IMG/VR virus record: IMGVR_UViG_3300026549_000029
Coordinates: 223,869 to 287,868 of that record
DNA from: a virus
Lineage: Duplodnaviria > Caudoviricetes
Direction: 5' to 3' (one strand)
Length of the DNA stretch: 64,000 nucleotides
In this document: piece after piece, positions 63,249 to 63,886 of the stretch
Layout of the letters: the number at the start of each line of letters is the position of its first letter
Numbering within the stretch: position 1 is the stretch's first letter
Notes under the pieces: generated by a model
Database searches by the model: none
Told to the model about the DNA's origin: nothing
Seen by the model: only the letters and a program-made list of their open reading frames with translations
Program-made: the position numbers and the translations under genes

Positions 63249-63886
63249 ATGACGCTTGTACGAAAAAGTCTGAGAAATATTCAGGACCTTCCTCAGATGG
63301 GTTATTTACTATATCTGAGGAAGGTAATTTTTCTATTTTTTAATTTTTTCTAAGATACAAAATTAAAAATTTACATAATAAAAGTTTCTTAAATAATAAA
63401 CTTTTACATTATTTTTATCAAAATATAACATTTCAGTAAAGTATATATGGGTAAAATATTTATTTTGTACTCAATTTATACTTAGATTATTGCTTATTTA
63501 TATACTTTATTAACCATATTTAAGGTCTCCAATCTATATTAACAGCTGTTTGGCTGGGTTATAATCTTACTCAGCCAACACTGTTAATCAATGGTTTTTA
63601 TCTTATATAAATGAGAATATGGGCTAACTGAGATTCTGGTTCCTCAGATGGCTTATTTAATATATCTGAGTATAGTATATACTTTAAGAATTACAATTGA
63701 ATATAAGCAATAATCTTAGTTTTAAAAATCTATAGAAAGGAGACATGGCATAAGATATTATAAAAATAAATTTTATATTTTATTTTTATAATATCAGCTG
63801 GTGTAGCATTATTTCAAGAAGCAAAAAATTTTAGCAAGTAAATGCTAAAATTCTTTATTTTTGTTAGACTTCGTGAAATGACGCTT
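63249..63886. mobile_element. 620-bp non-coding structured element inserted in an inter-cassette site, flanked by a 9-bp direct repeat ATGACGCTT
   Basis: Left junction TTTTCT-ATGACGCTT-gtacgaaaaagtct; right junction agacttcgtgaa-ATGACGCTT-ACTAGTATTATGCT; removing it restores a normal site. Confidence 0.6.

Follow-up and report, generated by a model that had tools for sequence, protein, structure and literature searches.

The question raised by this locus is whether a short motif repeated along a tandem gene array of a large rumen phage is a site of recombination, and whether a non-coding element lodged between two copies of this motif, here called E, enters and leaves the array through it. 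The comparison of related contigs indicates that the conserved 8-9-bp motif is the recombination site of a previously undescribed gene-shuffling locus, because genomes that are otherwise identical either contain E or lack it precisely, and because related strains have E beside different array genes.

The phage, its cassette array and the core motif

The window, meaning the whole stretch of 64,000 nucleotides analysed, is the terminal 64 kb of a virus record of 287,868 bp (G000); its positions 63131-64000 correspond to record positions 286999-287868. The phage is a 288-kb virus of the cattle rumen, and the samples in which the stretch was encountered are cattle and sheep gut samples from 13 studies. 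The window is AT-rich (GC content of about 28%) and codes for a major head protein and for a protein of 3,919 aa. From position 58975 onward it carries an array of head-to-tail units, each composed of the 9-bp core ATGACGCTT, a conserved right arm and an ORF of about 170-250 aa. The array spans the ends of the record: two further sites are located at record positions 119 and 712, and beyond them come f1 and f2, a pair of paralogous fibre-like genes. Its beginning is marked by the following features.

58931..58974, + strand: pre-array hairpin and T-run detected by a terminator scan; this flank is joined directly to a core and E in contigs L013 and L020
58975..62683, + strand: seven standard array sites (cores at 58975, 59674, 60258, 60833, 61438, 62053 and 62675), a KWG-repeat cassette gene following each; potential attB-like targets

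The cassette ORFs share three KWG repeats within their first 32 residues, with 19 invariant positions among the N-terminal 44, and the remainder is variable. Neither the cassettes nor the fibre-like proteins matched a family in Pfam or PHROGs. Cassette 8 was modelled as a beta-sandwich (pLDDT 81), which resembles carbohydrate-binding modules and parts of phage baseplates only weakly. We infer from this model that the cassette products may be adhesin-like; as the resemblance is only weak, the term is used below as a putative label. Cassette 3 (window 60292-60831) contains one in-frame TGA at codon 5, turning KWG into K*G, and its frame is uninterrupted elsewhere up to the usual end; it is either a recent pseudogene or a case of read-through, and ENA contigs carry the identical sequence at this site. 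At the other end of the array, contigs of six assemblies (L017-L022) stop at or just past the first core (window 58975), the 119-kb contig L017 exactly on its last base, and the first cassette of L018 and L022 has the right arm ACCAGT against ACCAAT in cassette 1. These contig ends and this arm difference indicate that the start of the array is also variable among samples.

The core is restricted to the array. Nine matches to ATGACGCTT occur in the window, all on the + strand, for 0.07 expected, and none of 100 shuffles reached nine. The whole 287,868-bp record holds 11 copies, all direct and all within the array, with no copy outside it or on the reverse strand. Its 8-bp part ATGACGCT is invariant in 31 of 31 listed sites from four lineages, as well as in the further sites of the L045-L047 set, and the neighbouring arms are lineage-specific.

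Anatomy of element E and its hybrid junctions

The preliminary description of this DNA had reported a non-coding 620-bp element with hybrid junctions at 63249 and 63878, and both are present in the sequence. Element E and its parts are arranged as follows.

63249..63257, + strand: attL-like left junction of E, with the core ATGACGCTT between the standard left flank tattttttct and the foreign right arm gtacgaaaaagtct
63258..63877, + strand: element E, 620 bp, gene-free, 23.7% GC, one copy per genome
63258..63283, + strand: conserved left end GTACGAAAAAGTCTGAGAAATATTCA, holding the inverted arm ACGAA..GTCT
63287..63349, + strand: hairpin CCTTCCTCAGAT/ATCTGAGGAAGG followed by a T-run, intrinsic-terminator-like, behind cassette 7
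63420..63449, + strand: block AAAATATAACATTTCAGTAAAGTATATATG conserved in three lineages, candidate promoter
63481..63719, + strand: strongly folding domain of 239 nt, closed by the 17-bp inverted repeat CTTAGATTATTGCTTAT / ATAAGCAATAATCTTAG
63736..63754, + strand: gene-start relic GAAAGGAGAC ATG GCA TAA, a ribosome-binding site and start from the decayed 5' end of a fibre-like gene
63866..63877, + strand: right end AGACTTCGTGAA, inverted partner of the left arm (GACTTCGTTAA in G001, TACTTCGTTAA in L032)
63878..63886, + strand: attR-like right junction of E, with the core ATGACGCTT between the foreign left arm agacttcgtgaa and the standard right arm of cassette 8, actagtattatgctatat...ATGgcaataaaatgggg

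The longest reading frame lying wholly inside E has 22 codons; frames of 29-49 codons all cross a junction, and the 34-codon frame, when looked up, was not on record. The record contains no second copy of E, and E belongs to no Rfam family, a search of window positions 58000-64000 giving no match there with an E-value <= 1. A group I or group II intron was rejected, E being intergenic, flanked by direct repeats and devoid of an Rfam match. A decayed cassette inside E was likewise rejected, as blastx revealed none.

The ends of E are conserved. Its left 230 nt are about 78% conserved and the first 26 nt nearly invariant in G000, L031, L020, G001 and L032, and the last 11-12 nt (GACTTCGTKAA) are retained in all lineages. 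When joined, the two ends rebuild the palindrome CTTCGTKAA-ATGACGCT-TKYACGAAG, in which the inverted 9-nt arms around the 8-bp core match at 6/9 positions in this phage, 7/9 in G001 and 8/9 in L032. The imperfect inverted arms attributed earlier to the junction of a putative circle agree with this reconstruction (6/9). No other palindrome of this type is found in the genome, including near the recombinase gene discussed below. Standard sites are devoid of such arms, their flanking 9-nt stretches matching as inverted repeats at about 1/9 positions, so that two standard sites are unlikely to form a simple synapse of the Cre or Xer type.

The interior of E has the appearance of regulatory DNA. 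The hairpin behind cassette 7 has a 12-bp stem in the consensus fold of all lineages, with two pairs changed on both sides in a compensatory manner, and probably acts as a terminator. A contig of the RNA run X3 begins at 63451 and reads into cassette 8 at a depth of 9-13, against 2-4 for the contigs of cassettes 1-7; this single metatranscriptome offers a weak hint of a promoter at 63420-63449, to be taken as a lead. The late-promoter consensus of phage AR9, AACA-N6-TA (PMC5312081), fits positions 63427-63438 in two of three lineages. This reading and that of a phiKZ-type promoter (TATG) fit partially and are no more than leads. That the conserved block might serve as a promoter throughout the phage was rejected since the genome has no other copy of it.

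The folding domain is more stable than its shuffles (z = -6.0 for the + strand, -5.2 for the - strand) and its 17-bp closing stem is invariant in four sequences from three lineages. It encloses a hairpin with compensatory changes (63541-63585) and a second, CTCAGAT hairpin (63640-63671), its motif occurs in the genome in E only, and its features could be those of a structured leader RNA or of a pair of protein-binding sites. Concerning the relic, the equivalent part of E in G001 matches residues 1-143 of f2 (31% identity, E-value 5e-9) and has an in-frame stop, and E of L032 retains a 50-codon frame starting with MAQIGKNQIG. The right part of E (window 63736-63877, L024:2476-2776, L032:6327-6479) corresponds to the decayed first ~143 codons of the downstream fibre-like genes, which hints that the array may have grown from a site within such a gene. 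The similarity to fibre-like genes may even extend through the core into the right arm, at a level too weak to be used.

A terminator and a gene-start relic within E speak also for a different explanation, which we hold to be rather unlikely. E would be an old regulatory spacer in front of the fibre-like operon, the core a promoter or regulatory motif, and the losses of E or of cassettes 1-7 deletions at microhomologies, by slippage or single-strand annealing; the variants would have spread by homologous recombination between co-infecting phages, without a dedicated recombinase. The non-palindromic standard sites are in its favour as well. However, the inverted 9-nt pair around the core has been kept at the ends of E in three lineages, and since the motif is absent elsewhere in the 288 kb, it does not qualify as a general promoter. 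Reading the site as a sigma-70 promoter (ATGACG-16-TATATA) was rejected, as the pattern is not retained in the other lineages.

Presence, absence and changing neighbours of E

The virus record itself contains both states of the site. Its positions 1-127 are identical to 286999-287125 (end of cassette 7 and core) and its positions 119-241 to 287746-287868 (core and start of cassette 8); therefore the record starts with an empty site, its first 241 bases reading cassette 7, core and cassette 8 without E, and ends with an occupied one. The record is complete, either circularly closed or permuted, and its 'linear' label is an artefact, because the 241-base overlap of its ends is interrupted by a polymorphic unit of 629 bp. 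The genome length is about 287,627 bp when E is present and 286,998 bp when it is absent. More generally, when a polymorphic insertion interrupts the overlap between its ends, a complete viral genome may go unrecognised behind a 'linear' label.

The empty site between cassettes 7 and 8 that the preliminary description had predicted is thus found in the record and also in L010, L011 (ENA) and L015 (JGI), with flanks 100% identical. A larger rearrangement is visible in sample ERZ27252065, where both forms coexist: contig L013 (136 kb) reads pre-array terminator flank, core, E, core and cassette 8, and L010 (4.5 kb) reads pre-array flank, cassettes 1-7, core and cassette 8. The two sites that must have recombined to produce L013 have only 16 bases in common. 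In another assembly (L020), the pre-array flank is joined to a variant of E.

Repeated arrays are prone to misassembly, and an assembly artefact could be invoked for the difference between filled and empty sites. The break in the record falls inside the array, many contigs terminate at array sites, and the 127-base stretch that opens the record, of a length that seems to resemble an assembler word size, reappears 743 bases from its end. Against this, the junctions share just 9-16 bases, far less than assembly word sizes (k141, k87), both forms recur in JGI and ENA assemblies from several samples, and Logan contigs from four runs of four studies (one of them RNA) span E with both junctions. Taken together, these points render an artefact extremely improbable. 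Some of the contigs compared may share raw data with the record, which counts against the reading of E as a recombining unit.

Several observations on the sequencing runs bear on the sites of E. Runs containing about 0.55-0.6 of the words were considered as carriers of the empty site and rejected, E being present in all four runs. A depth-based share of empty sites in run X1 proved unreliable, since cassette 7 is nearly identical to a paralogue in its 3' half. Contigs of X1 and X2 covering E (window 63228-63888) end at 63888, on the core plus AC; these ends fit a branch at 63889, where L031 has A versus T, and E may therefore precede more than one cassette in these samples. In contigs of X2 and X3 (one DNA run, one RNA run), E from 63407 or 63665 onward is joined to unrelated sequence, so parts of E may occur in other contexts. 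The junctions of E, searched as exact sequences in contig collections of viruses, metagenomes and genomes from which records close to the window may be missing, gave no match or chance matches in GC-rich DNA (L009, L023).

In strains 100% identical to the window E always precedes cassette 8, which counts against a mobile E. The preliminary description had suggested looking for E in front of other cassettes, and such cases exist among relatives. In L031, whose backbone is 97% identical, E (97% identical) is followed by the orthologue of cassette 5 (95.8% aa identity), and the orthologue of cassette 9 lies upstream of E; the order of these two orthologues thus differs between strains 97% identical. 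The right neighbour of E is cassette 8 here, the cassette 5 orthologue in L031 and other cassettes in G001, L032 and L045; its left neighbour is cassette 7, the pre-array flank (L013, L020) or other cassettes.

E is conserved in three diverged lineages and bounded by ATGACGCT in each. The 274-kb relative G001, whose f1 and f2 products are 67-70% identical at the aa level, has standard sites made of ATGACGCTA and a different right arm, and an 845-bp E between its third and fourth cassettes. The third lineage possesses a 653-bp E in L032 and an exact empty site in L033 and L034, from other assemblies, with flanks 100% identical over 4.4 kb. The left-junction type recurs in L031, G001 (L024:1923) and L032:5774, and the right junction in L013, L014 and L031. 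A fourth lineage (L035) has five cores and no E, which speaks against the recombination proposed below. In L035:6543-10113, each of the five ATGACGCTA sites is followed by a small hairpin (AATCTTCT..AGAAGATT), and gene callers begin the cassette ORFs of this contig at the ATG of the core.

The ninth base of the core provides further information on the point of exchange. In lineages whose standard core ends in A, a T is found at the left junction of E and an A at both the right junction and the empty site. The ninth base tracks the right arm, which places the exchange inside ATGACGCT. The earlier interpretation of the junctions as attL and attR, with the core as the crossover, gains from this pattern and from the empty sites with 100% identical flanks.

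Exact empty sites are also pertinent to the possibility that E is a MITE moved by a DDE transposase, ATGACGCT(T) being an 8-9-bp target-site duplication. E is non-coding, about 0.6-0.85 kb long, and has short imperfect terminal inverted repeats and a flanking direct repeat of the appropriate length. But the flanking repeat has the same sequence at all copies in all lineages, each genome holds a single copy, always flanked by ATGACGCT, and the empty sites are free of any footprint. The interior of E, moreover, is a host-gene relic and a terminator instead of transposon-derived sequence, and the phage has no match to DDE_Tnp_1, rve or IS110, although a host enzyme might substitute. We consider a MITE very unlikely. 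The suggestion that E is a parasitic element targeting the repeat, made earlier as an alternative, is likewise less likely now, in view of the conservation of E across lineages and of the terminator and gene-leader relic inside it.

The strain comparison offers mixed evidence on the old regulatory spacer. E lies one to three cassettes ahead of the fibre-like genes in every lineage (three in L045-L047, one in L032 and G001, two here). All the rearrangements seen can be written as deletions between direct repeats 8-16 bp long, the 16 identical bases being common to the sites behind the pre-array flank and E, and this counts against a recombinase. No circle junction or tandem E was found, with no go-back joint from 63877 to 63258 in the contigs of the four runs and no match among viral contigs, contigs being known to drop rare forms. 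Yet the loss of E would have only 8-9 bp of identity to rely upon, and the same exact event has taken place in two lineages. Furthermore, the right-hand cassettes of E differ in strains 97% identical, and deletion alone is insufficient to account for this.

Proposed mechanism, possible role and relation to known systems

On balance, we find it reasonably probable that E is a resident, non-autonomous unit of the array and that it is subject to conservative site-specific recombination, with exchange within the invariant ATGACGCT. This interpretation fits because presence and absence recur exactly at an 8-9-bp core in two lineages, because a further deletion has one of its ends at the left junction of E, and because conserved inverted arms exist only on the side of E. 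A palindromic recombinase-type site would be divided between the two ends of E, half at each. A crossover between the two directly oriented junctions would generate a standard empty site and a circle carrying the palindrome described above, and the reverse reaction would insert E at any core-bearing site. E would behave as an attP-like non-autonomous partner and the standard sites as its attB-like targets, with the enzyme supplied in trans.

The candidate for this putative activity is a Xer-like protein, the one tyrosine recombinase of the genome (PF00589, E-value 6.5e-41; NF040815, 223 bits for a cut-off of 220), which is 88% identical in G001. No resolvase, serine invertase, IS110, DDE_Tnp_1 or rve match was obtained in the phage genome, which leaves this recombinase as its only candidate for moving E. 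Its gene (record 76552-77544) is situated outside the window, about 75 kb from the array, a distance that counts against a link between enzyme and site. A 61-aa HTH_17 gene of the excisionase family lies beside the array (window 58476-58661). It had been put forward as a Xis-like helper; it is absent beside the arrays of the E-bearing G001 and L032 and present in the E-less lineage of L035, a distribution that makes it a weak candidate.

The insertion of E could influence expression of the array. After an insertion each cassette still has a conserved upstream arm of its own, and since the core is duplicated and the right arm of cassette 8 left intact, E is not needed to supply this arm. E would instead shift the point where upstream transcription stops and probably also that where a new transcript begins. 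Since E has a left-end terminator, a conserved structured leader and a fibre-gene start relic, its position would split the array into two units, the one downstream of E probably being co-transcribed with the fibre-like genes. Extending this scheme, large rumen phages may carry an integron-like system of their own, in which a Xer-like recombinase acting in trans moves cassettes and a promoter- and terminator-bearing E among ATGACGCT sites, the position of E deciding which adhesins are transcribed with the fibre operon. This is a tentative and rather doubtful proposal. If true, it would amount to a recombination-based host-range switch operating by excision and insertion, not by inversion. Programmed variation of phage receptor-binding proteins is known to proceed through inversion (Gin/Cin) or diversity-generating retroelements. 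The present locus brings to light, in natural populations, precise excision and insertion at a dedicated 8-bp core within a tandem library of adhesin-like genes, one unit of which is non-coding and apparently regulatory. If driven by a recombinase, it would give large gut phages a new way to achieve host-range plasticity, and also provide a recombination site that is compact, defined by sequence and naturally equipped with a donor and a target.

The locus shares certain properties with several known recombination systems. As with Xer recombination at dif, cer and psi, a Xer-like recombinase (above the NF040815 cut-off) is available, deletion occurs between direct sites, and about 200 bp are conserved on one side of the core, reminiscent of accessory sequences. 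A dif-like 11-6-11 parse of the standard site was rejected, because neither its spacing nor its arms are constant from one lineage to another and because the E junction falls in the putative left arm, outside the hexamer.

In the Rci shufflon of R64 and the Gin, Cin and Min systems of Mu and P1, site-specific recombination alters the variable part of an adhesin or tail fibre, and in E the decayed constant 5' part of such a gene adjoins the site. Those systems, however, invert DNA between inverted sites within a coding region, whereas the 11 sites here are all forward, with none reversed, they lie upstream of complete genes, and the phage has no serine invertase. Because all sites are direct and upstream of genes, the products are deletions and insertions and not inversions.

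Closer parallels are found with lambda-type attP x attB recombination and with integrative elements that borrow an integrase. The same short core is identical at both junctions, the arms are hybrid, the empty site is exact and inverted core-type arms exist on the element side only; as in the borrowed-integrase elements, E contains no recombinase. E differs from a lambda-type element in encoding no integrase and must be non-autonomous. It differs from both in its target, a repeated site in a phage gene array instead of a bacterial chromosome, and in being a conserved 0.6-kb resident of the locus, composed of regulatory sequences only, its circle and integrase being putative.

Integrons offer the other parallel. 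They too consist of head-to-tail single-gene units separated by a short recombination site, gain, lose and reorder units precisely, as E and the block of cassettes 1-7 are present or absent exactly at cores, and include non-coding units. The phage recombinase derives from the Xer/IntI branch of tyrosine recombinases, and E is possibly a promoter-bearing platform beside the insertion point. Unlike attC, the array sites form no imperfect palindrome and their core is ATGACGCT instead of GTTRRRY. The recombinase scores 110 bits with TIGR02249 (cut-off 265) and 71 with PRK15417 (cut-off 435), and is encoded far from the array. The 'platform' E can itself be excised, the array resides in a large phage, and adhesin-like paralogues sharing an N-terminus make up its cassettes. 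Without displaying the defining features of either, the locus has its closest analogues in integrons and in integrative elements that borrow their integrase.
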